This document shows positions 2,353 through 37,951 of a DNA stretch of 64,000 bases, one piece after another. Under the pieces are notes generated by a model. It did not search any database, was not told the origin of the DNA, and saw only the letters and a list, made by a program, of their open reading frames with translations. The position numbers and the translations under genes are program-made. The stretch is from an uncultured Gammaproteobacteria bacterium (lineage in GTDB: Bacteria; Patescibacteriota; Patescibacteriia; S139-126), in the NCBI GenBank assembly GCA_964493305.1, contig CAZBLW010000002.1, forward strand, positions 258,521-322,520, written 5' to 3'. How positions within the stretch are numbered: the stretch's first letter is position 1; the number at the start of each line of letters is the position of its first letter.

Positions 2353-2433
2353 TTGTCATTCTCGTGTAAACGGGAATCTAAAAACAAAAAATTATTTATT
2401 TTTTTGGATTCCTGACTAAATCAGGAATGACAA
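2353..2433. repeat. MITE-like element (TTGTCATTCC...GGAATGACAA termini, two internal hairpins)
   Basis: ttgtcattctcgtgtaaacgggaatctaaaaacaaaaaattatttatttttttggattcctgactaaatcaggaatgacaa. Confidence 0.7.
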
Positions 2434-2460
2434 ATAAAGAAATTTAAAGTTTAGAAAGTA

Positions 2461-2952
2461 ATGTTTTTTTCCAAAAAAAATAAAAAATATATACTAATAG
2501 TTATTCTAGTTCTGATATTTTTATTATCTACATGGCTGATTATTTATTTATTTCCACCAATAAGTAAAAATTTACCACCTCTACCTACAAATCCAGTTTC
2601 CATAAAAACAAGTAATAAAATTTATGATCCAGCCAGTAAACATAGTTGCGAAGTAGTGCCATTTTCCCAATCTTTTACAAATGAACAGATTGTTTACCAG
2701 GTTAATTTATTTCCTTCAAATAAAAATTTTAGTTATCAACTAGAATTAGGAGAGCTACCGTTGGGTATAGTAGGGAATATCAACCCAATTTTAGGTAAAG
2801 GTAAAACGTCTGTAAATTTATATTTAAACAATATAACCAAGCAAACTGAAGGTTCCTTTACCATCCCCTTAGTTTATCATGAATATCAGTTGGGAAAATT
2901 CAAATGGCTGACCAACTATTGTTTGTTCAATGTGATTTTACCGGAAAATTAA
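2461..2952 (+). CDS. hypothetical protein with an N-terminal signal-anchor
   Basis: 163-aa ORF. After the basic start MFFSKKNKK there is a hydrophobic helix ILIVILVLIFLLSTWLIIYLF. It is tightly packed against the next gene. Confidence 0.5.
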   Translation: MFFSKKNKKYILIVILVLIFLLSTWLIIYLFPPISKNLPPLPTNPVSIKTSNKIYDPASKHSCEVVPFSQSFTNEQIVYQVNLFPSNKNFSYQLELGELPLGIVGNINPILGKGKTSVNLYLNNITKQTEGSFTIPLVYHEYQLGKFKWLTNYCLFNVILPEN

Positions 2953-2958
2953 TAAAAT

Positions 2959-23900: not shown

Positions 23901-25949
23901 AAAATATACAATTATGTTCGTAACCAGCGGCAGATACTTGAAGATATGAACGCTGGTCGACCAAACAATCCGGTAGCGTATTGGAGTTTTGATGAAGGTC
24001 AAGGAAGTTATGCTAATGACTATAGTGGTTATAATCATCGAGGGACTTTAGGTTGCTCAGGTACAGGTTGTTCGTTACCTGAATGGAAAACTGGTGTAAG
24101 AAATACTGCTTTTTACTCAGATCCAGCAACAACTACAGAAAAACAATGCGTCTCACTTACTACTACAAATTTGAATATTTCTAGTGCTACCGGGACATCT
24201 GTTAGTATGTCGGTTTGGTTGAATGCTTCCACAACTCAGATAAGTAGTGGTGGGGGTTGGGTGCTTCGTCGGGGTTCAGGAACTGATGAAAATTATAGTA
24301 TGATTTTAGTTGCCAGTGGAGGAAAATATAAAGTTAAGCTGGAAGGTTATGATGGTATTACCTTTAGAAGCGGAACTTCCAATGGTGCTTATATAACACC
24401 TGGCGAGTGGACTCATGTCGTGATGATTTATAAACAAGGGATTGGTTTTGATCTGTATATCAATGGTGTATTTAAGGAAACTGTCAGTTATCCCTATATC
24501 AATTTGACTGGCACAAGTTTTGCGATTGCTTGTGGTGGTGGTAGTAATCAGTCTTACAATGGTTATATTGATGAATTGAAAATATATTTGTATGAGCTGA
24601 CCATGGATGAAATCAGAAAAGATTATAATTTTGGTTTACAAAATGTTTTAAGTCAGCCAGCGGTAAATACTCAAAGTGCTCCGACTTCTTCTTTAGCATA
24701 TTGGAAGTTTGATGATATGACAGGAACTACAGCTGTGGATAGTACTGGTAATGGTAAAAGTGGTAATTTTGGTGGTAGTCCGACGTGGACAGTTGAAGGT
24801 AAAAATGGCGGTGCTTTGTCTTTCAATGGCAGTAGTGATTATGTATCAGTCACAAATGATAGCGATTTAAATTTTGGTACCAGCAGTTTCTCAATAAGTT
24901 ATTGGACCAAATCAAATTATCCTTCAGGCACCAGAGGTTTTATTCAAAAAGGATCTGGACCTTTCAATACTGCTGGCACTGGTTGGCAACTGCGTCAAAA
25001 TGGAACTTTATTTGAATTTGCCCGTAATAATGGTGGTGCTAATCCAACCCGTTTATCAACCAGTTTATCTGCCTGGTCAGGCAAATGGGTAAATGTAATT
25101 GTGACTTACAATTATAGTACTGGTGATGCCAAGCTTTATGTCAATGGAAGTTATATTGATACAGTAAATTATACTGGTGACTATGTAGATTCTTATAATT
25201 TAGAAATAGGGCGAGGTAATGATGGATATTTCAGTGGCATGATTGATGATGTAAAACTTTATAACTATGTTTTAACTGACAGAGATATTATTATGGAATA
25301 CAATGGTGGCGCGCCAGTGGGTTATTGGAGTTTTGATGAAGGTCAAGGCGAAACCGTATTTGATAGGAGCGGCAATGGCAATAATGGCACATTAATTGTG
25401 GGTTCAGGTGGCACTCAGTCAGCTACTAGTTCCGCCTGGGCCAATGGCGTGGCAGGTAAAATAAATAGTTCTCTTAGTTTTGATGGTAGTAATGATGAAG
25501 TTATAATGCAAGGTCCTGAGCTATCTGTTAATGCTACTATAAGTGGATGGTTTTATTGGGTGGGTGGTGTCACTAGTTTAATAAGAGATAACACTGGAGG
25601 TAATGGTTGGATATTGGGTTATAACAGTGGTGATATTTTAAGATATCGGGTTGGTGGGATTGAGTTTAACACCAATATAAATGTTAGTAGCTTGCAAAAT
25701 AAATGGGTTCATTATGCTGTTACAAAAAATGCGAGTACAACAAATTATTATATTGATGGTGTTTTAAAATTTACAGGAACAACCGCAGCTAATGTTACTA
25801 GTACTATGCCATGGCATATAATGAGAAATGGCACAATTGCAAGTTATATATCTGGTAAAGCAGACGAAATAAAAATTTGGAATTATGCCTTAACTTCAGA
25901 TGAAATCAAACAAGAGTATAATGGAGGGTTTAGTAGTTTTTTTAGATAA
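20946..25949 (+). CDS. giant (1667 aa) membrane-anchored surface protein, paralog of the 15005-20806 gene (DUF2341-like plus about eight LamG-like modules)
   Basis: N-terminus, linker peptides (YNYARSADQIRQDYNKGF; NRALSADEVRRLSEWAPGPV; NYVRNQRQILEDMNAGRPNNPVAYWSFDEGQG) and the C-terminal ..EIKQEYNGGFSSFFR are near-identical to the previous gene. The two share stretches of DNA identity. Confidence 0.8.
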   Translation: MHFSFPQLNILNALKRTKVNKGTWLAIFAVVVLVLASSFYFFRKDSPEAEASWWDEGWYYRKALVVDYTKVDSELTNFPIAVQFNTTNNIYNNTNSDGSDLRFTDNNGNLLNYEIEKWNESGTSTVWVKLPTVYATASTTFYIYYGNPTATDAQTPTEVWDDNFVGVWHMAQDPSIAGASILDSTSKQSNGSPLGSMTTDDLIDGQLGQALDFDGSNDTINFGNGTDFNLTSEYTFSAWINYKRTLLQTLFAKSSSYRCRVQATSDTLSIYNFTDTTDTNVNAILTVPKNEWSYVSCVYDSTNGGKAYLNTSTNTGPTPGSGNLDQTSENVYLASLNNSSRFMQAFIDEARLSKVRRSDAWIKADYYSGLGTLYTQLSEEQGPGPVAYWSFDEGYGTTANDYSTGGNNGTITGATWKDSSECVKGKCLFFNDNGYVQMNTTTTLAKNNFTISAWFKTDSTADDKIISFGTSYHPLQILNGNFRVCMNGCSVGTRIFNDNIWHHALIVGDQSSIRVYVDGQLEITQGVTSGDMAGILRIGAVGADGGGTSPTYYFKGYIDEVKVYNYARSADQIRQDYNKGFNIALGQANQYNSLSDGLVGWWPMDEQTWNGTSGEVLDMSGNNTTGTATNANTTSTARFGRAGSFDGDSDYVELNNNSKIANLNSSSFTMAGWIRTTDITKEWQGIFGTDNSLSFFAIYLQSDVYAYTYMDGQVGNIRTLHSGANSIKNNTWYHIAATRDYQTGVTNLYLDGKLVDTFTALGNAGDPQNGLYLSVDGANSFKGQLDDMRIYNRALSADEVRRLSEWAPGPVLYMPLDEASGSSVYDKSGNNLSTTTIGSPTWLDGKYGSALHFNGSTQKIDLGNSSNLQLTNGTVEAWIKTSDAGTTYRGIVAKQNAYGMFLNDNVFGIYDWGGSGWHTSGVSLNDNQWHHVAFSFQSGIASGTILYIDGIPKLITTMTVSNQTASLQIGEANSNQYFAGEIDDIKIYNYVRNQRQILEDMNAGRPNNPVAYWSFDEGQGSYANDYSGYNHRGTLGCSGTGCSLPEWKTGVRNTAFYSDPATTTEKQCVSLTTTNLNISSATGTSVSMSVWLNASTTQISSGGGWVLRRGSGTDENYSMILVASGGKYKVKLEGYDGITFRSGTSNGAYITPGEWTHVVMIYKQGIGFDLYINGVFKETVSYPYINLTGTSFAIACGGGSNQSYNGYIDELKIYLYELTMDEIRKDYNFGLQNVLSQPAVNTQSAPTSSLAYWKFDDMTGTTAVDSTGNGKSGNFGGSPTWTVEGKNGGALSFNGSSDYVSVTNDSDLNFGTSSFSISYWTKSNYPSGTRGFIQKGSGPFNTAGTGWQLRQNGTLFEFARNNGGANPTRLSTSLSAWSGKWVNVIVTYNYSTGDAKLYVNGSYIDTVNYTGDYVDSYNLEIGRGNDGYFSGMIDDVKLYNYVLTDRDIIMEYNGGAPVGYWSFDEGQGETVFDRSGNGNNGTLIVGSGGTQSATSSAWANGVAGKINSSLSFDGSNDEVIMQGPELSVNATISGWFYWVGGVTSLIRDNTGGNGWILGYNSGDILRYRVGGIEFNTNINVSSLQNKWVHYAVTKNASTTNYYIDGVLKFTGTTAANVTSTMPWHIMRNGTIASYISGKADEIKIWNYALTSDEIKQEYNGGFSSFFR

Positions 25950-25990: not shown

Positions 25991-26401
25991 ATGACAGAAT
26001 TACTATATGAAGAGTTGAGTTATAAAATTAGAGGATGTTGTTTTACTATTTATAATACTCTTGGCTTTGGTCATAAAGAAGATATATATCAAAAAGCCTT
26101 AGAGATTGAATTAGCTAAACAAAAAGTTAGATATGAAGCACAAAAAAGTTTAGCTATATATTATGATGATAAAAAAGTTGGCAACTATAGACCAGATTTA
26201 ATTATTGATGATAAAATAATTATTGAAATTAAAGCAGTTGAGTTTATTCCAAAAAAGTTTGAACAACAGTTAATATATTATTTAAGGGGAATTAATTTCA
26301 AACTTGGATTTTTAGTAAATTTTGGAAGTTCAAAACTATATATTAAACGTCTTATTTGGTCGACAAATTATCAGCGTAAATCTGCCATTAATCCGTTGTA
26401 A
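25991..26401 (+). CDS. GxxExxY family protein (PD-(D/E)xK-like small protein)
   Basis: 136 aa. N-terminal LSYKIRGCCFTIYNTLGFGHKEDIYQKALEIEL carries the G-H-K-E-D-I-Y (GxxExxY) signature and the ALxxEL helix typical of TIGR04256-like proteins. Confidence 0.75.
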   Translation: MTELLYEELSYKIRGCCFTIYNTLGFGHKEDIYQKALEIELAKQKVRYEAQKSLAIYYDDKKVGNYRPDLIIDDKIIIEIKAVEFIPKKFEQQLIYYLRGINFKLGFLVNFGSSKLYIKRLIWSTNYQRKSAINPL

Positions 26402-26406
26402 CTATT

Positions 26407-27519
26407 ATGAAGTTGAGTAGAAAAAAAATATTATTTATTATAATCGCAATTGTTTGGGCTATCCCAGCTCTAGCAGATGACTATGCCTCTTCTACTTACA
26501 TCATCCGTGATCCGATTATTAGTGAGGGTGGAACACATTATTCTTCCTCAACCAATTTTGAAGTCAGATCAACTATTGGTGGTGTTGAAGCAATTGGAGT
26601 TTCCACTAGTACCAGTTATGAGGTAAGAAGTGGTTTTCAGTATTATGATGACTCTGGTCCGGATATAACAGCAGCAGTAGTTAATGATGGACCAGGAGCT
26701 GATCTTGATCAGCAGTCATCAATCAATACTTTAAGTGCCAATTGGTCAGGATTTGTTGACAATGAGTCAGGCCTACGGCCAACCAATACTTATGCTTATG
26801 CTCTCAGGCGAACACCTGACAATTATTATTGGAACGCTACTACCACCACCTGGCAAGCAGGTGAGGCTTGGTATTATACCAGCAATGCTTATGCCACGGT
26901 TACACCGGTATATTTGCGTACCTCCCAAACTTTTTATGTTTCAGTCAAAGCCTACAACAATTTAGATATTGCTTCACTGCCAGTCAATTCTGACGGAGTA
27001 AAGGTAATTGAAACTTTGACATTTTCTTTGAGTTCGTTTTCCGCTAGTTTCAATACTTTGGATCCGGGAAATAATTTTACGGCACTCAGTTACACTACTA
27101 CTACCGTTTCCACCAATGCCTACAATGGTTATGTAATAACTGCCTGGGAAACAGGCCCGATGACCCACCAAATCAATAACTTTTTTACTATTTCTGATTG
27201 GCCAGGTACCAATGCCGTGCCCACCGCCTGGGCGGGGACCTGTCAGGGAAATGATGAGTGCGGTTTTGGTTACAAAACTAGTGATACTAGCTTGTCCGGT
27301 GGAACTGCCAATCGGTTCGCCAGTGGCAATGATTATGCGGGTTTTGTCCAAACCGGAGCGGGAGACCCGGTAGCTGATCACACTGCCAATATCGACGGTT
27401 CTACAGGTGAAGTCGTAAATCAGCAGTTTTTGATAACTTATAAAATTTCTTCCAATGCCAGTCAAGCAGCTGGTCCATATGCTACTACCGTGGTGTATGT
27501 AGCAACGGCAAATTATTAG
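26407..27519 (+). CDS. secreted protein (type A of an A/B paralog pair). Signal peptide, internally duplicated SSTNFEVRSTIGG / STSYEVRSGF motif, Cys-pair region.
   Basis: 370 aa with a signal peptide (IIIAIVWAIPALA). The C-terminus (QAAGPYATTVVYVATANY) and the C..C..F..YxxFASG block are shared with the 28788 protein (SGDYSNTVVYITTAQFD; HTCFGLDCVGAYSSGTNYRQFAS). Confidence 0.6.
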   Translation: MKLSRKKILFIIIAIVWAIPALADDYASSTYIIRDPIISEGGTHYSSSTNFEVRSTIGGVEAIGVSTSTSYEVRSGFQYYDDSGPDITAAVVNDGPGADLDQQSSINTLSANWSGFVDNESGLRPTNTYAYALRRTPDNYYWNATTTTWQAGEAWYYTSNAYATVTPVYLRTSQTFYVSVKAYNNLDIASLPVNSDGVKVIETLTFSLSSFSASFNTLDPGNNFTALSYTTTTVSTNAYNGYVITAWETGPMTHQINNFFTISDWPGTNAVPTAWAGTCQGNDECGFGYKTSDTSLSGGTANRFASGNDYAGFVQTGAGDPVADHTANIDGSTGEVVNQQFLITYKISSNASQAAGPYATTVVYVATANY

Positions 27520-27520
27520 A

Positions 27521-27590
27521 ATAAGATTTAAGATGTAAGATTTAAGAATTAAGAATTCATAAATCATACTTCATAAATCAGAAATCATTT
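27521..27590. repeat. 'gatttaagatttaagaat ... attcataaatcatacttcata' intergenic repeat. Second copy at 59048-59118, partial copy at 14381-14420.
   Basis: The 21-mer attcataaatcatacttcata is present at 27545 and 59086, both preceded by gatttaag iterations. Confidence 0.6.
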
Positions 27591-27594
27591 TTAG

Positions 27595-28653
27595 ATGAAA
27601 AAAATTTTTTTTCTAATTATTACTACGTTTTTACTTTGGCCTGTTTTAACCAGCGCCCAAGTCAAAGAAGCACCGACTATTACCGTCAGTCCTGGTACTT
27701 TTGAACTTGATGTTTTGGGGGGAGAGAGTATAACTAGAGAAATTTTATTACGCAACGAAACCAACCTACCCCTACCGATAAAAGTTAAAACGATTACCTT
27801 TGATGCGGCTGATGAAACTGGTGGTATGACTTTTTTTGATGACACCAGTGCTGGTGAGTTATCAGCACAAAATTGGCTGAAACCAGACAGAAAAGAATTT
27901 ATCCTGGATGCTAAGCAAACAATTTTTTTACCAGTCACCGTTGCAGTTCCCACTGAAGCTTTGCCGGGCGGACATTATGTAGTGATGTTGTTTGAACCAC
28001 AACTACCTTCATTTTATTTTGCCGACAATGCCACCAAAGTAGTGCCAGTGGTTGGGGTGTTGTTTTTATTTAACGTACAAAAAGATTCCTTGAGTCGGCA
28101 GGTGGGTGATTTTTTATCCATTGTTAGTATTAACTGGCAAGACCAAACCGCTGATTTTTTACAAGGTTTGTCTAGGGTTTTAGAAAAATCTCTGGCCTGG
28201 TTATTACCCCAAAGAGTACTGGCTGCTGCCAATCCCATGGTTTATATTGACCCGCCAGAAGAGTTTGTAATGCGTCTGAAAAACAATCAGTTATGGCATA
28301 TCAAGCCCAGTGGCTATGTGAGAGTGCATAATATTTTCAACCATCTAGTAACTGAGACTGAAGTAAAACAATTTACTATTCTACCGGGTAGAATTAGGGA
28401 AGTCCCAGTGACTTTAGGTTGGAAAAATTTGGATAATTTTTGGCCACACGTTTTTGGCCGCTATGTGGTAGAAGTATCACTTAGCACCAAAGAAGGTTAT
28501 GTTTTCAACCAGTGGCAGGTTTTGTGGATCTTACCCTGGCAGTATATGTTATCCACATTTATTTTAGCTGGACTTTTCTTGTTTTTTGTGTTACAATTTA
28601 AAGGTAGAATAAGGAGATTTTTAATGGTTTTATTCACAGGCAAGACAGAATAG
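27595..28653 (+). CDS. cell-surface protein with N-terminal signal and C-terminal TM anchor (type B; DUF916/DUF3324-like topology as in the Firmicute WxL-locus protein CscA)
   Basis: 352 aa with a signal peptide and a beta-rich ectodomain carrying ..LPVTVAVPTEALPGGHYVVMLFEP (compare the GxYLGGI block of DUF916). C-terminal TM LSTFILAGLFLFFVLQF followed by the basic tail KGRIRRF. Paralog of 29977. Confidence 0.55.
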   Translation: MKKIFFLIITTFLLWPVLTSAQVKEAPTITVSPGTFELDVLGGESITREILLRNETNLPLPIKVKTITFDAADETGGMTFFDDTSAGELSAQNWLKPDRKEFILDAKQTIFLPVTVAVPTEALPGGHYVVMLFEPQLPSFYFADNATKVVPVVGVLFLFNVQKDSLSRQVGDFLSIVSINWQDQTADFLQGLSRVLEKSLAWLLPQRVLAAANPMVYIDPPEEFVMRLKNNQLWHIKPSGYVRVHNIFNHLVTETEVKQFTILPGRIREVPVTLGWKNLDNFWPHVFGRYVVEVSLSTKEGYVFNQWQVLWILPWQYMLSTFILAGLFLFFVLQFKGRIRRFLMVLFTGKTE

Positions 28654-28787
28654 AGAATTACGAATTAGGTATTACGAATTAAGAATAAATGAAAAATCCT
28701 TATAAATTAGTCATTTTTATCAGTAATTAGTTATTAGTAATTAGTCATTAATTAATATATTCCCCATTAATAAAATTAATCAAACAT

Positions 28788-29924
28788 ATGAAACTTAGAA
28801 AATTTTTCATGCCCAACTGGTATAAATGTCGACGTAATTTATACTTAGTTTTGGTTTTAGTTTTGTTGTTTACCACTTGGATGGTACAACCAGCCCGAGC
28901 TGATTTGACCAATGTCAAAGACACTTTGTCTGATTCCAGGCCCAGCCTTGGTGCCAATCATACTATCCAGTTTACCTTGTCTGGTGCCAACAATATCTCT
29001 ACTTCAGATACTATTGTAGTGACTTTTCCCGCAGGTTTTACAATTGGCTCAGTTGATTATACTGATATAGATCTTTCTGGATCAAGTGCCAGTGAACAAA
29101 CTTTGGCGGCCTCAGCTACTGCTTCTGATTGGGGAGCGGTTTTTTCCGGACAAGTGCTAACTTTGACTGCTCCGTCTGGTGCTGGACCTTTTATTGCCGG
29201 TGGTGAAACTGTGACCATCGAGATTGGCACCAATGCCACAGCTGGAGCTACGGGTGATCAACAAATACAAAATCCGACCGCTGCTAGTTATACAATTAGC
29301 ATAGCCGCCAATGGTGATAGTGCCGAAACCGGTGCTTTGGTGGTTGCTATAATTTCTGGGGTGACAGTGTCAGCTACTATTGCTGAATCTTTGACTTTTT
29401 CAATTACTGGTGTGAGCAACACCGCTTGTACTTTGGGTAATGCCGTAACTGCTGTGACAACTACAGCCACCGCCGTTCCTTTTGCTTCAATGAATGCCAA
29501 TACCTTTAAAAAAGGTTGTCAGATTTTGACAGTCAATACCAACGCCGGTGATGGTTATACTATGACCTCACAAGAAACTGATCAATTGACCAATGCTGGT
29601 TCACAAACTATTCCGGATACTACTTGTGATACTGGTACTTGTACCGAAAGCACAGCTGCTGCTTGGGCAACAGCCACTGCCAACCATGGACTTGGTCATA
29701 CTTGCTTTGGTCTTGATTGTGTAGGTGCTTATTCTTCCGGTACCAATTATCGCCAGTTTGCTTCAATTGCCGATACAGAAACCGCGCAAACTATTATGTC
29801 TTCATCAACGCCGGTAACCAATTCTACTTCTACCGTAGTTTATCAATTATCTGTTTCAGGATCACAATCATCTGGTGACTATTCCAATACCGTTGTCTAT
29901 ATCACTACTGCTCAATTTGATTGA
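28788..29924 (+). CDS. secreted protein (type A', paralog of 26407)
   Basis: 378 aa with a signal peptide (LVLVLVLLFTTWMVQPARA). Ala/Thr/Ser/Gly-rich, beta-rich. Shares the C-terminal blocks of the 26407 protein. Confidence 0.6.
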   Translation: MKLRKFFMPNWYKCRRNLYLVLVLVLLFTTWMVQPARADLTNVKDTLSDSRPSLGANHTIQFTLSGANNISTSDTIVVTFPAGFTIGSVDYTDIDLSGSSASEQTLAASATASDWGAVFSGQVLTLTAPSGAGPFIAGGETVTIEIGTNATAGATGDQQIQNPTAASYTISIAANGDSAETGALVVAIISGVTVSATIAESLTFSITGVSNTACTLGNAVTAVTTTATAVPFASMNANTFKKGCQILTVNTNAGDGYTMTSQETDQLTNAGSQTIPDTTCDTGTCTESTAAAWATATANHGLGHTCFGLDCVGAYSSGTNYRQFASIADTETAQTIMSSSTPVTNSTSTVVYQLSVSGSQSSGDYSNTVVYITTAQFD

Positions 29925-29976
29925 TCATTTTAGCAATCGAAAAATGTAAATTCACCCAAGTAGAATTTGGTCATGC

Positions 29977-30966
29977 TTGGGTGATATTTTTGCTCATATT
30001 AATGATTCCTTTGTGAAAAAATTTCGTAACAATTTAGTACGAATTATTAGCTTAGTATTTTTATTAGTTGTTGGATTGAATATACCTTTTGGTCAAGCCC
30101 AAGAGTTGTCCGATGATACACGTTCAATTACTATTTCACCTTTAACCTATGAACTTTCCGCCAACCCCGGTGAGCAAATTAGCAATAAAATTAAAGTAAT
30201 AAATACCAGTCCGCAGCCGATATTTGTCACTATGGAAGTAGAGGATTTTACCGCTGTTGGTGAAGGTGGTGGAGTGGTGGTCCAAGAACAGGATAATCAA
30301 ACTTTTTCTTTGGCTAGTTGGGTGGCTTTGTCGGAAACTCAGTTTACCTTAGCACCAGCTGAACAAAAAATTATTGATTTTACCGTGAGTGTTCCAGCAG
30401 ATGGGGAGCCGGGCGGTCATTATGGTTCTATTTTGGCAGTGGTATCACCACCTGATGTTTTAGCCGGTGGTGGTAGTGGCGTAGCTCAAAAGGTTGGTTC
30501 ACTTTTACTTTTGTCAGTTGCCGGAGAAGTCAAAGAAAATCTAATAGTCAAAGAATTTTCCGCACCAGTATTTTTTGAAAAACCACCAATTGATTTTATA
30601 TTACGTTTTGAAAACAAAGGCACCGTGCACGTAAGACCCAGGGGTTTTGTGTCCATAACCAATATGTTCGGAAAAAAAGAAGTAGATATTCCATTTCCCC
30701 AGAAAAATGTTTTGCCTGCATCGATCAGAAAAGTAGATGTCAGGTGGGATCCATCCTTGGCAATTGGTAAATATACTGCTACTTTGGTTGCCAATTATGG
30801 CACCGAAAATACCCCGCTGGTTTCCAGTTTTGTTTTTTGGGTATTTCCTTGGAAATTAGCTTTACTGGTATTTGTGGGATTGGTTATTGTTATTACTTTA
30901 CTTATCAAATCACGCCGGCGTTTGCGACTGGCTTTACGTATATTGTTTAGAGGAGATAAATCATAA
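29977..30966 (+). CDS. cell-surface protein with signal peptide and C-terminal TM anchor (type B', paralog of 27595; DUF916-like)
   Basis: 329 aa. ITISPLTYELSANPGEQISNKIKVINTSPQPIFV...VSVPADGEPGGHYGSILAVVSPP parallels the 27595 protein. C-terminal TM LALLVFVGLVIVITLLI followed by KSRRRLRL. Confidence 0.55.
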   Translation: MGDIFAHINDSFVKKFRNNLVRIISLVFLLVVGLNIPFGQAQELSDDTRSITISPLTYELSANPGEQISNKIKVINTSPQPIFVTMEVEDFTAVGEGGGVVVQEQDNQTFSLASWVALSETQFTLAPAEQKIIDFTVSVPADGEPGGHYGSILAVVSPPDVLAGGGSGVAQKVGSLLLLSVAGEVKENLIVKEFSAPVFFEKPPIDFILRFENKGTVHVRPRGFVSITNMFGKKEVDIPFPQKNVLPASIRKVDVRWDPSLAIGKYTATLVANYGTENTPLVSSFVFWVFPWKLALLVFVGLVIVITLLIKSRRRLRLALRILFRGDKS

Positions 30967-30975
30967 ATTAAATCC

Positions 30976-32070
30976 ATGCATAGTTGGGTAAAACTAGCGT
31001 GGATAATCTTGATTGGAATTATTTTAATTCCAATTTTTGTATTGGCCCAAACCACTACCGTTACTTCTACTAGAAATATCATCGTTTCGGTGCAAGTGAT
31101 TGGCCCACAAGTTTGTGGCAATAATTACATCGAACCACCCGAAGAGTGTGATGATGGCAATTTGGTAAATGGTGATGGTTGTTCGGATCAATGTTTATTG
31201 GAACAGATTTGTGGTGATGGTATAGTGCAAACACCCGAAGAATGCGATGATGGCAATTTGGTAAATGGCGATGGTTGTTCGGATCAATGTTTACTGGAAC
31301 AGATTACGCCAACCAGTACACCACCAGTAGGTTGGAGTGGTGGCAAAACCCTGACTACGGTTGAGTTTTTTGGTGTGACTTCTCCTTCTGCTCTGGTTAG
31401 TCTTACCAAATTTGGTCGAGTAGTGGCCATCACCCAAGCAGATCAGACGGGAAATTTTGTTTTTAGATTGTCCGCTTTGCCGATTGGTACTTATGATTTT
31501 GGTTTGTTTGCTGAGGATAGATTTGGTAGATATACCCTAACCACCAATTTTAGTCTGAGCTTGGTTGCCCGTAGCATCACTACTGTTGAGAATATATTTC
31601 TTACTCCGACAATATCAATTTCTCGTCGCGATATAATTCCTGGGCAAAAAATGATGGTTTTTGGTGAGACTGCTCCCAATGCTTTGGTGGAGGTTTATTT
31701 AGGCAGTACTCGTCTAGATCAAGTGGTTTATAGTGACGCTAACGGTTTTTGGCAACTAGAGCTAGATTCAACCAATCTACCGGCTGGTCCACAAAGTATC
31801 AAAACTAAGGCCTTGACTAGCGATGGATTGGAGAGTAATTTTTCCGAAAGTTTATATTTTGAGGTAGTACCGGCGCCAATTCCTCAAGGTCAGTGTGCTG
31901 GGCCGGATTTAAATTTTGATGGTTGGGTAAATATCTTTGATTTATCAATTTTACTAAATTATTGGCGACAAACTAACCCCGAGTTTGTCTGTGCTGATAT
32001 CAATCAAGACGGCATAGTGGATATAGTTGATTTTTCCATCATGCTGTATTGGTGGAGTGAAAGTTTTTAG
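30976..32070 (+). CDS. secreted protein with two Myxococcus-type cysteine-rich repeats and a C-terminal type-I dockerin domain
   Basis: Signal peptide. CGNNYIEPPEECDDGNLVNGDGCSDQCLLEQI occurs twice (CxxGxxEECDDGNxxxGDGCSxxC). C-terminus has two Ca-binding dockerin segments: DLNFDGWVNIFDLSILLNYW and DINQDGIVDIVDFSIMLYWW (DxNxDGxVNxxD + helix). Confidence 0.7.
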   Translation: MHSWVKLAWIILIGIILIPIFVLAQTTTVTSTRNIIVSVQVIGPQVCGNNYIEPPEECDDGNLVNGDGCSDQCLLEQICGDGIVQTPEECDDGNLVNGDGCSDQCLLEQITPTSTPPVGWSGGKTLTTVEFFGVTSPSALVSLTKFGRVVAITQADQTGNFVFRLSALPIGTYDFGLFAEDRFGRYTLTTNFSLSLVARSITTVENIFLTPTISISRRDIIPGQKMMVFGETAPNALVEVYLGSTRLDQVVYSDANGFWQLELDSTNLPAGPQSIKTKALTSDGLESNFSESLYFEVVPAPIPQGQCAGPDLNFDGWVNIFDLSILLNYWRQTNPEFVCADINQDGIVDIVDFSIMLYWWSESF

Positions 32071-32175
32071 TTAAAGCATTTCACTAATTATCGATTTTAT
32101 TGTATAATATAGGCAGGCATATACAGATGTCATGGCCGTCTTTTGTTGTATTAAGCTATTATCTTTATTTCAAAT

Positions 32176-33309
32176 TTGAAGTTCCTTTTCGGTATGTTTA
32201 AAAAATTTTTATTTTTATTCGTTCTACTTGTTTTATTTTTTCCTCTTGCCAGTAAAGCAGCGGAACTTTATTTATGGCCTCAAGGTTTAGCAGTCAGCCA
32301 ACAGGAAACATTTTTGGTTGATTTGCGTATCAATAGTTCAGATCCGATCAATGCTCTTGACACGGAAGTGTTTTGGTTACCCGAAGAATTGGAACTTGTG
32401 TCAGTTAGTACTGGTGACAGTGTATTTGATTTATGGGTATCTGATCCCAATAAATTTTCTTTGGGTAGTATTAGACTTATAGCTGGCGCCAGCAAACCCT
32501 GGCAAGGCAATGGGGGAAAAGTAGTAACTTTTTTATTTAAAGCCCTAGTCAGTCGCGAACAAGTGCAGATTGGTATTGATGATGATACTAAATTGGTCGG
32601 TTACGGTGGTAGTGGCGAAGAGTTGCCAGTTGATTTATTACCAACCAACGTAGCTGTCAATCCCACCGGTCAGGGAGAACCGGTGCTTAGTTCAACCAGG
32701 ATACCCGATGAAGATTCGTGGTATGCGGTCAATGTATTTGATATCAATTGGGAAGTTAAACCAAACCTGGAGTATAGTTATCTCCTGACCATGGATCCCA
32801 CGCAATTACCTGATGACAATCCAGAATCGCTCCTAGCTAATATTCAATACGAAGGATTAGCTGACGGGATTTATTATTTTGTTTTACGCTATCGACCACA
32901 AGGAGGTGATTGGCAGGGAAAAGTCATGCGCCGAGCAATGATTGACACCACTCCGCCAACTTTCAATGAGCTAAGGCTAATTGAAAAAAGTGATGCTTAT
33001 GGTTTGGAACAGAATTTATTTTTTGCCGCCACTGACAATGCTGCGGGTATTTCCGAGTATACTTTGAGTATCAACGGACAATTGCCACAAATCGTGACTA
33101 GTCCTTGGCGTGTTCCCAAGCGCTGGTTGGTGAGTCAAAATTTAGAAATCAGAGCTATTGATGCGGCAGGTAATTGGCAAAGCAAAAGTTTGACTTTGTC
33201 GGCAGTCATACCACTATGGGTCTGGCTGATCGTCTTATTTATCATTATAATTATTATAGGTTTGTATTTGTACCGTTTATGGAGAGTAAAAAAACCAAAA
33301 TCATCTTAA
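32176..33309 (+). CDS. type-I membrane protein with an N-terminal cohesin-like domain (putative dockerin receptor)
   Basis: Signal peptide, then AELYLWPQGLAVSQQETFLVDLRINSSDPINALDTEVFWLPEELELVSVSTGDSVFD...GKVVTFLFKALVSREQVQIGI. This resembles the cohesin beta-sandwich signature (..sgdtvtvpv...dlkyDpsvLe.v.v..G......gtlatltFkaka.G). C-terminal TM IPLWVWLIVLFIIIIIIGLYLY followed by RLWRVKK. Confidence 0.55.
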   Translation: MKFLFGMFKKFLFLFVLLVLFFPLASKAAELYLWPQGLAVSQQETFLVDLRINSSDPINALDTEVFWLPEELELVSVSTGDSVFDLWVSDPNKFSLGSIRLIAGASKPWQGNGGKVVTFLFKALVSREQVQIGIDDDTKLVGYGGSGEELPVDLLPTNVAVNPTGQGEPVLSSTRIPDEDSWYAVNVFDINWEVKPNLEYSYLLTMDPTQLPDDNPESLLANIQYEGLADGIYYFVLRYRPQGGDWQGKVMRRAMIDTTPPTFNELRLIEKSDAYGLEQNLFFAATDNAAGISEYTLSINGQLPQIVTSPWRVPKRWLVSQNLEIRAIDAAGNWQSKSLTLSAVIPLWVWLIVLFIIIIIIGLYLYRLWRVKKPKSS

Positions 33310-34739
33310 TAGCACTTTTGACATTACTGATTGTTTTACCAGCTAGGGCGGGTGAATTTAGTTTTGGTTTTGCACCCTCGCAAAAAAGCGTTTTAGTCGG
33401 AGAAGAGTTTAGTGTAGATTTTGTAATTAGTGCCACCGAAAATATCAATGCCGCCAGGTCACAATATACTTTTGATAGTGACTATTTGGAACTGCTAAAT
33501 TTAACTACTTCTGATTCACTATTTACTCAGTGGCCAGCTAAACCCCAAGTCACTGGCAGTAGGATAGAATTTTCTGGTGGTCTACCTGATCCAGGATTTA
33601 CCGGGGATAATGGCAAGATATTAACGATGTTATTTCGGGCAAAAAAACCCGGTAGTGCTAAATTGCAATTTATTTCTGGTTCACTACATGCCAATGACGG
33701 TCAAGGTACCAATGTTTTAACTGGTATGAATGGTGCAATTTTTATGATTCAACCGCCTGGTACTTTGCCAGAAGGTATTTCCGCTGAAGAGTTGACCGCC
33801 ACACTGCCGGCAGCTACAATTTCTTCACCAACTCATCCTGATCAAACAGCCTGGTATCGGCAGTCACAGACAGTTTTTACTTGGCAACTGCCCCAACGAG
33901 CTGATCGATTATACTATGAAATAGACAGTAAACCCAATACCTATCCACAAAAATTACTTAGCTCACCACTCAACTATAGCCATTCGTTTTTAGAAAATGG
34001 TATTTGGTATTTCCATTTGCGTTATGAAAGCGGAACTGAGCGCAGTCGTACGGCTCATTTTAAAGTCCAGTTTGACGATACGCCACCGCGAGATTTTAAA
34101 ATTGAAATAACCAAGGATGATAAAACCGGTGCTTACAACATGTCTTTTCCCACTCAGGATGATTTGTCAGGAGTGAATTACTATGAAGTAAGTATTGATG
34201 ATGATAAGTATTTTATCCGTACCTCGCAAGCCAGTTATGAAATTGCCACTTTACCAACCGGTTCGCATCCGATTGTAGTTAGTGCCGTTGATAAAGCGGG
34301 GAACAATCGGGCGGTGAGAGCGGTGGTGGATGTAGAAACTTTGACTTTTGCTCCGCAAGTTTTGGTTAAAATGTTTTCACCTGATATTTTACCGTTGGAA
34401 ATGCGATTGTCGTTTTATTATGGTTTGATGTTTTTGGTATTTTTGTTTTTACTTTTGTTTATCATTTTGTGGTTTAGAAGAGCCAAACGCAGACAAGACA
34501 GAAAATTTTCTCAAGAGGTGGGGGAACTTGCAGCCAGTGTTGATTTTGGTTTCCAGACCCTGAGGCGAGATATTTTAGTGCAGATTGAAGAGATTTACAA
34601 AAAACAAAAAGCCATTGGTTTAGACGATAAGGAAAAGGACAACTTGAAAAAATTGGAAGCTGATCTTGATATTATTGAAACTTATATTAAAAAAGAACTG
34701 AAAGACGTCTCTGATTTTGATAAATATAAAACGAAATAG
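33279..34739 (+). CDS. type-I membrane protein with an N-terminal cohesin-like domain and a ~90-aa cytoplasmic coiled-coil tail. Start chosen at the internal ATG, MESKKTKII.
   Basis: The ORF track starts at 33174 and overlaps the previous gene by 136 nt. The ATG at 33279 gives a clean signal peptide (KIILIALLTLLIVLPARAGEF). Cohesin-like block FSFGFAPSQKSVLVGEEFSVDFVIS...YTFDSDYLELLNLTTSDSLF...GKILTMLFRAKKPGSAKLQFISG. TM MFLVFLFLLLFIILWF followed by RRAKRR and a K/E-rich tail. Confidence 0.55.
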   Translation: MESKKTKIILIALLTLLIVLPARAGEFSFGFAPSQKSVLVGEEFSVDFVISATENINAARSQYTFDSDYLELLNLTTSDSLFTQWPAKPQVTGSRIEFSGGLPDPGFTGDNGKILTMLFRAKKPGSAKLQFISGSLHANDGQGTNVLTGMNGAIFMIQPPGTLPEGISAEELTATLPAATISSPTHPDQTAWYRQSQTVFTWQLPQRADRLYYEIDSKPNTYPQKLLSSPLNYSHSFLENGIWYFHLRYESGTERSRTAHFKVQFDDTPPRDFKIEITKDDKTGAYNMSFPTQDDLSGVNYYEVSIDDDKYFIRTSQASYEIATLPTGSHPIVVSAVDKAGNNRAVRAVVDVETLTFAPQVLVKMFSPDILPLEMRLSFYYGLMFLVFLFLLLFIILWFRRAKRRQDRKFSQEVGELAASVDFGFQTLRRDILVQIEEIYKKQKAIGLDDKEKDNLKKLEADLDIIETYIKKELKDVSDFDKYKTK

Positions 34740-35283: not shown

Positions 35284-37026
35284 ATGCAAACCAATGACTT
35301 TAACTGGAAAATAGGTGGTGAAGCCGGTTTTGGTATTATGTCATCAGGAATGATGTTTGCCAAAATTTGTACCCGATCAGGACTATTTATCCATGATTAT
35401 AGTGAATATCCCTCATTGATCAGAGGTGGACACAATACTTATCAAGTTTATGTAAATAGTAAACATATCCATAGCCAACGACGAGTGGTTAATTTGTTAG
35501 TTGCCCTAAATACCCAAACGATTACTGAGCACCTGGCTGAGTTGGTTGCGGGTAGCGGTTTGATTTGTGATAGTTCTCGGGTCCAAGTGCCTAAAGCAGT
35601 ACTGCAAAAGAAAAAAATTGAACTCTATGATTTACCGCTCAACAATATTGCCAAAGAAGTGGGTGGTGATGAAGTTATGCGTAATACTGTTGCTCTTGGT
35701 GCAACTATGGCCTTGATCAAACTGGAGTTTAAAATTTTGGAAAATATTATCAAGGAACAATTTGCCCACAAAGACGAACAGGTGGCGGTACAAAATATCA
35801 AAGCAGCTAAAAGTGGTTATGAATATATCAAGTCCCATTACCAAGTAGATAATTTTGGTTTTAAATTGCAGGCACAAACAAATAAAGAGCAGATTGTGTT
35901 GACCGCCAATGACGCAGCAGCTCTCGGAGCAATTGCTGCTGGTTGTAAATTTTATGCTGCCTATCCCATGACACCGGCTTCATCCATTTTGCACACCTTA
36001 GCAGAGATAGGTCCGAAATACGGGATGGTAGTTAGACATGCTGAAGATGAAATATCAGTTATCAATATGGTAGCTGGTGCTGCGACAGCTGGAGTGAGAG
36101 CGATGTTGGGAACTTCTGGTGGTGGTTGGGCATTGATGAACGAAGGTTATTCGTTGGCCGGTATTACAGAAACGCCTATGGTGATTATTATGTCCCAACG
36201 ACCGGGTCCAGCTACTGGACTACCAACTTGGACTGAACAGGGGGATTTGAAATTTATCTTAAATTCTGGTCACGGTGAATTTCCTCGTATTGTCCTAACA
36301 CCCGGTGATCAGGAAGAGGCGTTTTATTTAACACAACTTGCTTTCAATCTAGCTGAGCTTATTCAGAATCCAGTGATAGTGTTGTTGGATAAATATTTAT
36401 CCGAAAGTCATATTTCTTGCCCACCATTTGTTTGGCAAAAATTACCAATTAAGCGAGGTAAAATCTTAACCAATGTCGAGGCTAAAAAGCTAGGTGATAA
36501 ATATCGTCGTTTTAAAGTAACAGCCGATGGCATCTCACCCCGGGCATTACCCGGCCAAGCTGGACCGATTGTTTTTATCAATTCTGATGAACATGATGAA
36601 ATGGGTTTTAGTGAAGAATCAGCAGAAAATCGTATTAAGCAAGTAGAAAAAAGAGCCAAGAAAATAAAATCTATAAGTAAAGATTTGCCTCAAGCTAAAG
36701 TCTATGGTCCAAAATCAGCTCCTTTGACTTTAGTAGGTTGGGGCAGTGTTAAGGGCCCAGTTTTGGATGCACTACAAAGTCAAAAGTTGAGAAACAAATT
36801 AAATTTTATCCATCTTCCTTTATTGTCACCTCTGCCCAGCAACGCAACTAAATTATTGAAAGCTAGTAAACGTTTAGTATTGGTGGAAAACAATTCCACT
36901 GGACAGTTGGCAGATATTTTACGTGCCAATTTTAGTGTTGAATTTAAGCATAAAATATTGCGTTACGACGGCAGACCTTTTTATAGTGAAGATTTGGTTA
37001 CAGAGATAAATAAAATTAAATTATAA
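35284..37026 (+). CDS. korA: 2-oxoacid:ferredoxin oxidoreductase, alpha subunit (fused gamma/alpha type)
   Basis: 580 aa. Family-typical blocks GGEAGFGIMSSG, AAYPMTPAS, GxxGGGWALMNEG. Immediately followed by the TPP-binding beta subunit. Confidence 0.8.
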   Translation: MQTNDFNWKIGGEAGFGIMSSGMMFAKICTRSGLFIHDYSEYPSLIRGGHNTYQVYVNSKHIHSQRRVVNLLVALNTQTITEHLAELVAGSGLICDSSRVQVPKAVLQKKKIELYDLPLNNIAKEVGGDEVMRNTVALGATMALIKLEFKILENIIKEQFAHKDEQVAVQNIKAAKSGYEYIKSHYQVDNFGFKLQAQTNKEQIVLTANDAAALGAIAAGCKFYAAYPMTPASSILHTLAEIGPKYGMVVRHAEDEISVINMVAGAATAGVRAMLGTSGGGWALMNEGYSLAGITETPMVIIMSQRPGPATGLPTWTEQGDLKFILNSGHGEFPRIVLTPGDQEEAFYLTQLAFNLAELIQNPVIVLLDKYLSESHISCPPFVWQKLPIKRGKILTNVEAKKLGDKYRRFKVTADGISPRALPGQAGPIVFINSDEHDEMGFSEESAENRIKQVEKRAKKIKSISKDLPQAKVYGPKSAPLTLVGWGSVKGPVLDALQSQKLRNKLNFIHLPLLSPLPSNATKLLKASKRLVLVENNSTGQLADILRANFSVEFKHKILRYDGRPFYSEDLVTEINKIKL

Positions 37027-37093
37027 ATTATCAATCATAAATTATAAATCAATTTTTAAAATTTAAAATTTAAAATTTATAATTAATACAACT

Positions 37094-37951
37094 ATGTCCA
37101 CTGATAATAATTTTATAACTTCCTATGATCCTACCTGGTGTCCGGGGTGTGGCAACTACGGACTTTGGGGTGCTTTGAAAAAAACTTTAGCCGAAATTGA
37201 TATTCCGCGTGAACAGATCATGGCTGTTTATGGTATCGGTTGTAGTGGCAATGGTTTCAATTTTACGAAAGTAAATGCCTTCCATGGCTTACACGGCCGA
37301 GCGCTACCAGTAGCTGAAGGACTAAAACTAGCCAATCATAAATTAACAGTTATTGCTTTAGGGGGTGATGGTGATGGTTATGGCGAAGGAGGAAATCATT
37401 TTTTACATGCCTGTCGGGCCAATCATGATATTGCTTATTTTGTCCACAACAACCAAACCTATGGACTTACTACCGGTCAAACTTCACCCACATCTGAACA
37501 AGGAATTAAATCAAAATCCAATCCTACCGGTGGAGTTGATAAACCCGTCAATCCGGTCGCGCTAGCCATTACTGCCGGGGCAACTTTTGTAGCCCGAGGG
37601 TTTACTGGCGATATTAACCATTTATCCGAAATGATGAAGTTAGCTATCAAACATAAAGGTTTTGCTTTGTTGGATATTTTGCAACCTTGCTTTACTTTCA
37701 ATAAGCACAATACTTATCAGTATTTTAGGCAAAGAATATATAAACCCGACAATCATCAAGCAAACGATTGGGAAGCTGCATTGCATTTGGCGTGGCAGTG
37801 GGAAAGGGAAGATAAAATTCCTTTGGGAGTAATTTATCAAACTGAAGATCGGCCGGCGTTTCATGAAAATTTTCCTCAAATTGAAAAACAGGTTTTGAAA
37901 GACCAACCATTAAAACACAACTTAACGGCTGATTTAAAAAGTTTCGTTTAA
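37094..37951 (+). CDS. korB: 2-oxoacid:ferredoxin oxidoreductase, beta subunit (TPP-binding)
   Basis: TWCPGCGNYG Cys motif, GIGCSGNG, GGDGDGYGEGGNH TPP-binding loop. 285 aa. Confidence 0.85.
   Translation: MSTDNNFITSYDPTWCPGCGNYGLWGALKKTLAEIDIPREQIMAVYGIGCSGNGFNFTKVNAFHGLHGRALPVAEGLKLANHKLTVIALGGDGDGYGEGGNHFLHACRANHDIAYFVHNNQTYGLTTGQTSPTSEQGIKSKSNPTGGVDKPVNPVALAITAGATFVARGFTGDINHLSEMMKLAIKHKGFALLDILQPCFTFNKHNTYQYFRQRIYKPDNHQANDWEAALHLAWQWEREDKIPLGVIYQTEDRPAFHENFPQIEKQVLKDQPLKHNLTADLKSFV

Follow-up and report, generated by a model that had tools for sequence, protein, structure and literature searches.

How do the ultra-small bacteria of the candidate phyla radiation (CPR, Patescibacteria) fasten appendages to their cell surface? 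Possibly making up at least a quarter of bacterial diversity, these bacteria live attached to host cells; to our knowledge, how CPR appendages are constructed and fastened is barely known. The question is raised here by three consecutive genes in a 64 kb stretch of patescibacterial DNA (the window), which encode a secreted dockerin protein (P1) and two cohesin membrane proteins, one short (P2) and one long (P3); all three ORFs are present as an earlier note had stated. The explanation that we favour overall, with a probability of about 0.55, is that P1 docks on P2/P3 in a Ca-dependent manner, probably as the membrane-proximal terminator of a Pam-type pilus.

Results

P1 ends in a predicted type I dockerin and is followed by two predicted cohesin proteins

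P1-P2-P3 form the 3' end of a seven-gene operon that reads pilin, chaperone, pilin, chaperone, dockerin protein, cohesin, cohesin (Table 1). Only 9 nt separate the end of chap2 from the start of P1, and a terminator scan of 26407-34739 found none in the intergenic gaps, with weak terminator-like matches inside coding sequence only.

Table 1. Features of the operon, in window coordinates
Feature	Position	Strand	Basis or detail
pil1, Pam-type pilin-like protein, possibly tip-like	26407..27519	+	sub-cutoff NCBIfam matches; jackhmmer homology to pil2
chap1, membrane-anchored chaperone-like protein (PamC/D-like)	27595..28653	+	paralogue of chap2
pil2, Pam-type shaft pilin-like protein	28788..29924	+	CPR_Pam_pilin_C match; linker strand
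pil2 linker (donor) strand SGVTVSATIAE, aa 190-200	29355-29387	+	
chap2, membrane-anchored chaperone-like protein	29977..30966	+	Pfam WxLIP_PGBD; C-terminal transmembrane segment
P1, secreted dockerin protein, 364 aa	30976..32070	+	signal peptide, N-terminal strand, 2 Cys-rich repeats, 2 Ig-like domains, dockerin
P1 N-terminal beta-strand-like extension TTTVTSTRNIIVSVQVIGPQV, aa 25-46, putative donor strand	31048..31113	+	
P1 two tandem 32-aa Cys-rich acidic repeats	31114..31305	+	DUF4215 / TIGR02232
P1 predicted type I dockerin	31906..32043	+	Ca-binding loops 31906-31941 and 31996-32031
P2, short cohesin membrane protein	32176 (gene callers: ATG 32194)..33309	+	
P2 modelled cohesin region	32254-32691	+	
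P2 transmembrane segment	about 33184-33288	+	
P3, long cohesin membrane protein	33279 (most likely ATG)..34739	+	
P3 modelled cohesin region	33342-33794	+	
P3 transmembrane segment	34401-34487	+	
P3 charged 86-aa cytoplasmic tail	34479-34736	+	
Two terminator-like hairpins 3' of P3	34962-34979, 35182-35205	+	likely operon end

P1 has no transmembrane segment and its C-terminus is the dockerin. Residues 311-356 match Pfam Dockerin_1 (PF00404) at 28.5 bits, above the curated cutoff of 22.9, and contain DLNFDGWVNIFD (aa 311) and DINQDGIVDIVD (aa 341), a tandem pair of 12-residue Ca-binding loops of the pattern D.[ND].[DN]G.{5}D; by these sequence features P1 classes as a type I dockerin protein, bearing out the two Ca-binding segments that the earlier note had read at its end. 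Solved type I dockerins that the P1-family profile hits include 2y3n_B (1.3e-5), 4fl4_A and 5nrm_B. In the 66 P1 homologues examined, the dockerin is the extreme C-terminus and the Ca-ligand positions D1, N/D3, D/N5 and D12 are kept at 80-99% in both loops; many homologues carry PF00404. P1 is also, as first reported, the only dockerin protein in the window: it alone among ORFs of at least 60 aa has a loop pair of this pattern, and it is the sole match of an iterated dockerin profile. The Cys-rich region matches TIGR02232 (3.6e-26) and DUF4215 (1.3e-12) over two stretches each. The two units are not the exact copies that had been claimed: aa 47-78 and 79-110 are identical over a 24-aa core and differ at six of their first eight residues, and the underlying DNA, with a period of 96 nt, is 82% identical between units. 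Judging from domain homology, P1 itself appears to lack an acceptor domain.

The gap between P1 and P2 contains a promoter-like site (32080-32108). P2 and P3 each have an N-terminal signal peptide and a single C-terminal transmembrane segment, and the charged cytoplasmic tail previously ascribed to P3 is indeed there (86 aa, 47% K/E/D/R). Pfam Cohesin (PF00963) has no match at E<=1 in P2 or P3, and a search of their sequences against the PDB found no match. Structure prediction nevertheless gave a cohesin for both N-terminal domains, in line with the earlier proposal of two membrane-anchored cohesin-like neighbours: the AF2 models (pLDDT 93.5 and 93.3) have the nine-stranded jelly-roll of cohesins, and their top 50 Foldseek matches in the PDB are cohesins only (best 1.5e-9 and 2.7e-9, TM 0.69-0.78). 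The top matches include cohesins solved in complex with dockerins. The wider families agree, since 29 of the 44 aligned P3-family members match Pfam Cohesin (best 1.3e-9) and hhalign relates P2 to the P3-family profile with a probability of 100%.

The upstream genes resemble those of the Pam pilus

At the sequence level, the four upstream genes resemble those of a donor-strand-exchange pilus, the Pam pilus, described in one cultivated species, Ca. Mycosynbacter amalyticus (Troman et al., 2026; bioRxiv 10.64898/2026.03.03.709456). The likeness lies in the pilin-like proteins, whose C-terminal domain is a candidate Pam-type domain, and in the chaperone-like proteins with their putative membrane anchors. 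In pil2, aa 227-377 match CPR_Pam_pilin_C (NCBIfam NF058581) at 1.8e-5 (24.8 bits); in pil1, aa 215-370 match it at 6e-4 (19.9 bits), both under the cutoff of 55, and aa 9-108 match CPR_pilus_PamT at 1e-9, also under cutoff. Syntenic pilin homologues pass the CPR_Pam_pilin_C cutoff, with 152 (L024), 80.5 (L029) and 67 bits (L060). Jackhmmer finds pil1 and pil2 homologous; the linker motif is conserved in 20 pilins, and pil2-type pilins have a longer linker strand ('VTVSATIA') than the stretch that precedes the C-terminal domain of pil1.

The two chaperone-like proteins are paralogues. Chap2 matches Pfam WxLIP_PGBD (29.7 bits, cutoff 27.3) and has a C-terminal transmembrane segment (aa 284-314), as described for PamC/D; chap1 has a C-terminal hydrophobic segment (aa 315-336), and its homologues occupy the same position in related loci. 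The NCBIfam PamC/D models had no match in the chaperone-like proteins of the window.

The dockerin-cohesin-cohesin set is conserved across Patescibacteria

Relatives of P3 occur in at least 586 species-representative genome stretches, from which we consider 83 non-redundant, best-matching loci of diverse Patescibacteria. The dockerin gene lies directly upstream of the first cohesin gene at 61 of the 66 loci with room for it and, counting three overlap cases, at 64/66, with a median gap of 10 nt; exactly two cohesin genes are found at 64 of the 83 loci. The three genes thus form a set, as the earlier note had it, although not a free-standing one, for they are the distal part of a pilin-chaperone operon: a chaperone gene directly 5' of the dockerin gene is found in 49/58 loci and a pilin gene next upstream of the chaperone in 28/42. 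In about a dozen loci no chaperone or pilin is detectable upstream of the dockerin and cohesin genes, and two loci have cohesin genes alone, indicating that the cohesin-dockerin core can exist without a pilus. The conserved adjacency with a dockerin gene is an indirect indication that P2/P3 may bind dockerins.

By sequence comparison, the P1 family conserves as its core the N-terminal beta-strand, a pair of Ig-like domains and the dockerin, the Cys-rich repeat being one of several interchangeable inserts: 64 dockerin proteins divide into 34 with a Cys-rich module, 11 minimal forms, 10 with a pilin-like N-terminal region and 9 others. The Cys-rich part, earlier taken for the tethered ligand, is not what the family conserves as cargo.

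Alternatively, and in line with the model of the earlier note, the locus could serve stand-alone surface display, P2/P3 being generic cohesin anchors for dockerin-tagged adhesins such as P1, with the pilus genes only co-regulated and P1 no pilus subunit. The prevalence of the Cys-rich module would suit such a role, as would the fact that the dockerin-cohesin-cohesin core is more widely kept than detectable pilins and chaperones and is found without them in several loci. Moreover, larger, adhesin-like MG2, InlB-B-repeat and DUF2341 proteins terminate in this dockerin subtype (58-65% identical), and so does an NHL/Big_7 protein close to the operon in L043, in keeping with a role in display generally. 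We nevertheless consider pure display rather unlikely, given how regularly a chaperone gene directly precedes the dockerin gene and given the N-termini of the dockerin proteins themselves: some of the ten with a pilin-like region have a recognisable linker strand, and most of the remaining ones begin with a pilin-linker-like strand on a flexible tether.

Most dockerin proteins begin with a strand similar to the pilin linker

In the dockerin proteins of three loci (L058, L076 and L004), a pilin N-terminal domain is joined through a linker strand and a Pro/Gly linker to Ig-Ig-dockerin, a layout in which the acceptor domain is replaced. Most of the other dockerin proteins have, after the signal peptide, the motif [DGS]V.[VI][ST]A[ST]V, which resembles GVTVSATIAE of the pilin linker; a tether rich in Pro/Gly or a Cys-rich insert comes next. 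Against a PSSM built from pilin linkers, dockerin-protein N-termini outscore other ORFs (Mann-Whitney p=3e-12); the strand of P1 itself scores only moderately (4.1). No significant genome-specific matching (p=0.13) emerged between the strands of dockerin proteins and the pilin linkers of the same genome.

Discussion

A proposed cohesin-dockerin joint at the base of a pilus

The probable function of the P1-P2-P3 trio is to hold a surface fibre or an adhesin at the cell membrane. Beyond the domain identities, topologies and conserved gene order described above, our model posits cohesin-dockerin binding, donor-strand insertion and a position of P1 at the pilus base. All seven operon products would be exported via Sec signal peptides; P2 and P3 would be held in the cytoplasmic membrane by one C-terminal helix, with the N-terminal cohesin raised above it by a stalk of beta-sandwich domains. 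P1 would be freed from the membrane and plug its C-terminal Ca-binding dockerin into the cohesin of P2 and/or P3, which would tether it non-covalently to the cell surface. It would most likely be the membrane-proximal end of a Pam-type donor-strand-exchange pilus encoded upstream: the last pilin would have its C-terminal Ig domain completed by the free N-terminal beta-strand of P1, and P1, apparently lacking an acceptor domain, would stop polymerisation and connect the fibre with the membrane via the cohesin-dockerin joint. Under the published polarity of Pam assembly, a donor-like strand with no evident acceptor domain points to the base and not to the tip.

This arrangement would split the role of PamR, the proposed pilus terminator and tether of the Pam system, into an adaptor (P1) and anchors (P2/P3). 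PamR is described as an N-terminal strand with two FnIII domains behind it and then a transmembrane helix; the Pam preprint mentions neither cohesin nor dockerin (bioRxiv 10.64898/2026.03.03.709456). Compared by description, P1 likewise has a strand at its N-terminus and then two Ig/FnIII-like domains, and its minimal forms are of similar size; in contrast, PamR reportedly ends in a transmembrane helix while P1 ends in a dockerin, the helix being supplied by separate cohesin proteins. The operon encodes no PamR-type protein (strand, two FnIII domains, C-terminal transmembrane helix). It suggests a mode of fastening unlike the membrane-spanning Pam tether and much more widespread, a plug-and-socket joint from fibre to membrane. 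Tentatively, and at slightly less than even odds, we propose that most Patescibacteria tether a Pam-type pilus by such a split, non-covalent joint and without a membrane-spanning subunit, the dockerin protein being the strand-donating terminator and the invariably paired cohesin proteins, short and long, the membrane socket; a conserved cytoplasmic coiled-coil tail would extend from the long one, and the near-symmetric dockerin might engage both cohesins.

A more radical alternative is that there is no pairing inside the module, the cohesin folds being structural or ligand-binding beta-sandwiches and the dockerin a Ca-stabilised end module that binds something else, for instance cell wall, S-layer or host surface. 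We know of no demonstrated partner for many non-cellulosomal cohesin and dockerin modules. The P2/P3 cohesins are too divergent for Pfam and, while type I dockerins of Clostridium thermocellum typically have Ser-Thr at helix positions 10-11, the dockerin here has hydrophobic residues at these positions (I-F and I-V). Still, we find this improbable: one dockerin gene and the cohesin genes stay adjacent almost invariably across very divergent genomes, and the cohesins closest in structure include those of dockerin complexes. Even less probable is binding in trans, in which the P1 dockerin at the fibre end would grip cohesins of sister cells or of the host for cell-cell adhesion; CPR bacteria do live attached to other cells and the paired loops are nearly symmetric, yet the cohesin partners share an operon with P1, whose donor-like strand speaks for a place at the fibre base.

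If the basal joint proposed here is real, it would be the first cellular role assigned to a non-cellulosomal cohesin-dockerin pair as a pilus anchor, giving a concrete function to pairs for which this has been an open question since they were catalogued. The anchor would also be a reusable dock for other dockerin-tagged adhesins, and the pair a natural orthogonal cohesin-dockerin couple for protein engineering.

Relation to other known systems

The closest parallel to the predicted joint is the cellulosome anchoring scaffoldin, in which a cell-bound cohesin receives a C-terminal duplicated Ca-binding type I dockerin: the type I cohesins of Clostridium thermocellum OlpA/OlpC (PDB 3ul4, 4dh2) are among the top structural matches of P2/P3. 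There are a number of key differences: (i), P2 and P3 are anchored by one transmembrane helix and not by SLH domains or sortase; (ii), the dockerin recognition positions differ; (iii), the host is a CPR bacterium and the operon is of the pilus type. A cellulosome was considered and rejected because the 64 kb hold one dockerin, each protein has one cohesin and there is no multi-cohesin scaffoldin; no glycoside hydrolase or CBM domain was found in the operon or in the upstream genes scanned. Other non-cellulosomal modules, such as the Archaeoglobus fulgidus cohesin (2xdh) and the toxin cohesins of Clostridium perfringens (2jh2, 2vo8, 2w1n), reside in enzymes or soluble proteins, whereas here a dedicated membrane-anchored cohesin pair and one adaptor share an operon kept across the whole radiation.

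The proposed role of P1 would also recall, by functional resemblance only, chaperone-usher terminators (e.g. PapH), where the last subunit donates a strand, cannot be extended and fixes the base of the fibre. Unlike in chaperone-usher pili, there is no usher and no outer membrane, and anchoring would be by cohesin-dockerin. In a comparison with the WxL surface-protein loci of Firmicutes (WxLIP / DUF916), no protein with a WxL domain was detected here, and the partners are Pam-type pilins and the cohesin-dockerin set; the likeness lies in chap2, which passes WxLIP_PGBD and has a C-terminal membrane anchor.

A dockerin protein and its two cohesin neighbours

The three consecutive plus-strand ORFs that the earlier note had read as a dockerin-cohesin module are present (see table) and encode a secreted dockerin protein (P1), a short cohesin membrane protein (P2) and a long one (P3). 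The dockerin claimed for P1 passes its Pfam cutoff (Dockerin_1, residues 311-356, 28.5 bits against 22.9). It is also, as had been stated, the only one in the window: among ORFs of 60 aa or more in the 64 kb, P1 is the sole carrier of a strict two-Ca-loop pattern (D.[ND].[DN]G.{5}D twice, 18-50 residues between), and it is the sole match in the window to an iterated dockerin-tail profile. DUF4215 (1.3e-12) and TIGR02232 (3.6e-26), the latter proposed earlier as a check, each match P1 twice in the Pfam/NCBIfam scans; the Cys-rich units are however not the exact copies that had been described, only a 24-residue core being identical, with 82% identity at the DNA level in the 96-nt repeat. The topologies are as first described: all three carry a signal peptide, in P1 with nothing further, in P2 and P3 together with a single C-terminal hydrophobic helix, which in P3 is followed by 86 residues, 47% of them charged. 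This charged helical cytoplasmic tail (aa 401-486, 34479-34736) is kept in the long cohesin paralogues (L008-L087); the short paralogue is without it. The true start of P3 is almost certainly ATG 33279.

That the N-terminal domains of P2 and P3 are cohesin-like holds for family and fold but not for their own profile matches: neither protein matches Cohesin at E<=1 in a direct Pfam scan, and the NCBIfam scan likewise gave none. Searches against PDB sequences were uninformative, phmmer of P2 and P3 finding nothing relevant and a full-length P3-family profile finding Ig-like and coiled-coil matches only, no cohesin, so that a fold comparison was needed. With AlphaFold2 models of P3 (aa 22-172, pLDDT 93.5) and P2 (aa 27-172, pLDDT 93.3), the top 50 Foldseek matches of both in the PDB are cohesins throughout (E down to 1.5e-9, TM 0.69-0.78), including the Archaeoglobus non-cellulosomal cohesin 2xdh and cohesins crystallised with dockerins; the non-cohesin fold that the earlier note had named as evidence against its reading was thus not what emerged. 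With 26% identity across 325 residues (E=5e-20) and an hhalign probability of 100%, P2 and P3 are paralogues. They come from a large Patescibacteria family, in which 29 of 44 aligned members match PF00963 (best 1.3e-9) and 36 of the 44 match Big_13; NCBI already calls some members 'cohesin domain-containing protein'. Cohesin and dockerin are known families, and non-cellulosomal pairs are known.

Features of the operon and its surroundings (window coordinates unless marked aa)
Feature	Position	Strand	Remarks
1327-aa ORF	3920-7903		no Pfam match; very long Gly-rich tracts (GGGGAGG...)
three giant surface-protein ORFs	7907-14377, 15005-20806, 20946-25949	+	2156, 1933, 1667 aa; directly upstream of operon
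small PD-(D/E)XK_3 gene	25991-26401		between last giant protein and first pilin gene
pil1	26407-27519	+	first gene of pair 1; Pam pilin C-terminal domain, weak match
chap1	27595-28653	+	second gene of pair 1; C-terminal membrane helix
pil2	28788-29924	+	first gene of pair 2; Pam pilin C-terminal domain, weak match
pil2 linker	aa 190-200	+	SGVTVSATIAE; conserved linker motif
chap2	29977-30966	+	second gene of pair 2; C-terminal membrane helix, passes Pfam WxLIP_PGBD
P1	30976-32070	+	364-aa ORF
P2	32176-33309	+	ORF; gene callers in identical public contigs use ATG 32194, giving 371 aa
P3	33174-34739	+	ORF; start ATG 33279 (486 aa); 486-aa form identical to database protein and called gene
pyruvate/2-oxoacid:ferredoxin oxidoreductase genes	35284-37951		downstream of operon; likewise in L003 and L006

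The trio lies in a conserved pilin-chaperone operon

The dockerin/cohesin/cohesin trio recurs in other genomes, but the three-gene limit first set for the module does not hold: four same-strand genes upstream of P1, forming two pilin-like/chaperone-like pairs, share the conserved order. In the window, chap2 ends 9 nt before P1 and the P2 and P3 genes overlap; the P1-P2 gap of 105-123 nt holds a promoter-like site (32080-32108), and terminator-like hairpins lie downstream of P3 (34962-34979 and 35182-35205).

In a scan of one genome per species, at least 586 stretches encode a P3 relative, and wherever records credibly name a taxon it is Patescibacteria; some automated MAG taxon labels in the scan are probably wrong. 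The best 80 of these were fetched and analysed with our own ORF calls, phmmer and jackhmmer, all counts being over 83 non-redundant loci. The order on contigs with homologues is pilin, chaperone, (pilin, chaperone), dockerin protein, short cohesin, long cohesin. Of the 66 loci with room for it, 61 have a P1-type dockerin gene immediately 5' of the first cohesin gene (median gap 10 nt), three further loci having been overlooked solely through gene overlap. A chaperone-like gene is directly upstream of the dockerin gene in 49/58 loci, with a pilin upstream of that chaperone gene in 28/42, and exactly two cohesin genes are found in 64/83. Four or five tandem cohesin paralogues stand behind one dockerin gene in L004 (6367-11966), L020, L021 and L084. 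Among the 83 loci, two have cohesin genes adjoining housekeeping genes and lack the dockerin gene, and about a dozen have dockerin and cohesin genes without a recognisable chaperone upstream.

The window pilins match the NCBIfam CPR Pam pilin C-terminal domain weakly (24.8 and 19.9 bits, cutoff 55); pilins of three loci pass that cutoff (152, 80.5 and 67 bits). NCBIfam Pam-system models match none of the dockerin, cohesin and chaperone proteins of four other loci, and a PHROGs search with all seven operon proteins gave no tail-fibre or other informative match. The N-terminal 100 residues of pil1 match the model of the tip pilin PamT (1e-9), ahead of its C-terminal domain it has a shorter stretch than the donor linker that pil2-type pilins carry, and its N-terminal module is also found on some dockerin proteins (L023, L031, L034, L047, L064, L073); together this suggests that pil1 may be the tip subunit and that gene order mirrors assembly order.

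A pilin-like strand on the dockerin proteins

Alignment of 34 homologues and 66 C-terminal tails defines the constant core of the P1 family: signal peptide, short beta-strand, Pro/Gly-rich tether, two Ig-like domains, of which the first resembles Bap/Big_6 domains, and a dockerin at the extreme C-terminus (consensus DLNxDGRVNLxDFSIxAYWY ... DLNxDGxVDLxDFSIMAYYWTG). The family profile matches solved type I dockerins (2y3n_B at 1.3e-5, 4fl4_A, 5nrm_B, 1daq), and a word-indexed homologue search with the core gave 27 close relatives. What varies is an insert between strand and tether: among 64 full-length homologues it is Cys-rich and acidic in 34, absent in 11, a pilin-like N-terminal region in 10 and something else in 9. 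The Cys-rich repeat is therefore common and dispensable.

The strand itself suggests a link to the pilus. Pil2-type pilins carry a conserved linker, [GQ]V[TA]V[ST][AG]T[VI]xE, just ahead of the C-terminal domain, and many dockerin proteins have a near-identical motif straight after the signal peptide (for example GMSVSATVE, GVSISATIE, QVIVTATVP, VVSVSATVQ, DVTVTGTVP); in P1 the corresponding strand is TRNIIVSVQVIG. Dockerin-protein N-termini outscore other ORFs against a pilin-linker PSSM (Mann-Whitney p=3e-12), P1's own strand being only a moderate match. In several of these proteins, Gly, Ser or Pro runs come after the strand, so it probably does not belong to the first Ig domain. The dockerin proteins of L058, L076 and L004 have a pilin N-terminal domain and linker strand, then a Pro/Gly linker and the Ig-Ig-dockerin core; judged by this domain order, each is a putative pilin with its acceptor domain replaced. 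We also asked whether each dockerin-protein strand is closer to its own genome's pilin linker than to those of other genomes, and the difference between the means (17.3 for cognate, 16.6 for non-cognate pairs) did not reach significance (permutation p=0.13).

Two proposed roles: pilus anchor or docking platform

The Pam pili of Ca. Mycosynbacter amalyticus, solved in a 2026 preprint, have pilins in which an N-terminal sandwich is followed by a linker strand and then by an Ig-like C-terminal domain that is incomplete; each incoming subunit gives its linker strand to the previous one, the tip is acceptor only, and the 'tether' PamR consists of a strand at the N-terminus, then two FnIII domains, then a transmembrane helix (bioRxiv 10.64898/2026.03.03.709456). 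Given this polarity, P1, which has a donor-like strand and appears to lack an acceptor, would sit at the pilus base. We infer that it would be the functional counterpart of PamR with one difference: PamR ends in a transmembrane helix, whereas P1 ends in a dockerin in its place, and the separate cohesin proteins P2 and P3 would provide the helix in the membrane. The base position and the PamR parallel are weakened by the cognate test and by the moderate PSSM match of P1's strand, and we put the reading of P1-P3 as a pilus base adaptor with its anchor at roughly 0.55. The neighbourhoods also differ: the pam operon is reported near ATP-synthase genes, the window operon is flanked by oxidoreductase genes. 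The text of the preprint mentions neither cohesin nor dockerin (bioRxiv 10.64898/2026.03.03.709456).

Alternatively, the cohesin anchors might serve display only, as a general docking platform for dockerin-tagged cargoes, which we consider rather unlikely as the sole function. Among 1.84 billion cluster representatives, the P1 dockerin tail matches 4128 at E<=1e-3 and 244 at E<=1e-10. Its close matches, at 58-65% identity, form the ends of larger proteins that are non-enzymatic and have MG2, InlB-B-repeat or DUF2341 domains. A second cargo candidate for these cohesins stands 4 kb away from the operon in the Woykebacteria locus L043: a 1140-aa NHL-repeat/Big_7 protein with a C-terminal Dockerin_1 (31 bits; 1949-5371, minus strand). 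On these grounds the cohesin anchors may hold several cargoes, and a docking platform is compatible with the pilus adaptor. A cellulosome is rejected because enzymes, CBMs and a multi-cohesin scaffoldin are all absent from the operon and the upstream genes scanned.

Southlakia epibionticum has an essential 'dockerin' protein, SEML1_0315 (PMC10633639); this 927-aa protein is encoded by a gene that stands alone among unrelated neighbours, so it is not a P1 orthologue. The component domains belong to known families, but in the searchable literature we found no report of a single dockerin adaptor being conserved alongside two membrane-anchored cohesin proteins in a pilus operon across Patescibacteria.

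Genes flanking the operon

Laminin_G_3 and DUF2341 domains recur within the giant surface proteins, which also have toxin receptor-binding-like domains and are anchored in the membrane at the N-terminus. Elsewhere, the 919-aa DUF2341 protein P0277 has at its end a dockerin of the P1 subtype, so that proteins of the giant type may be cargo of cohesin anchors in other genomes. The 1327-aa ORF, in which the Gly-rich tracts are followed by four or five repeats that contain Cys and are each about 100 aa long, accounts for a local GC of 0.52 and a GC skew of +0.34 in a genome otherwise at about 38% GC. The slot of the PD-(D/E)XK_3 gene is taken in L006 (829-1212) and L023 (6600-7007) by a small four-helix gene of the 23S_rRNA_IVP/bAvd type; the small gene in this slot may be a selfish mobile ORF, or else an accessory gene belonging to a diversity-generating retroelement.
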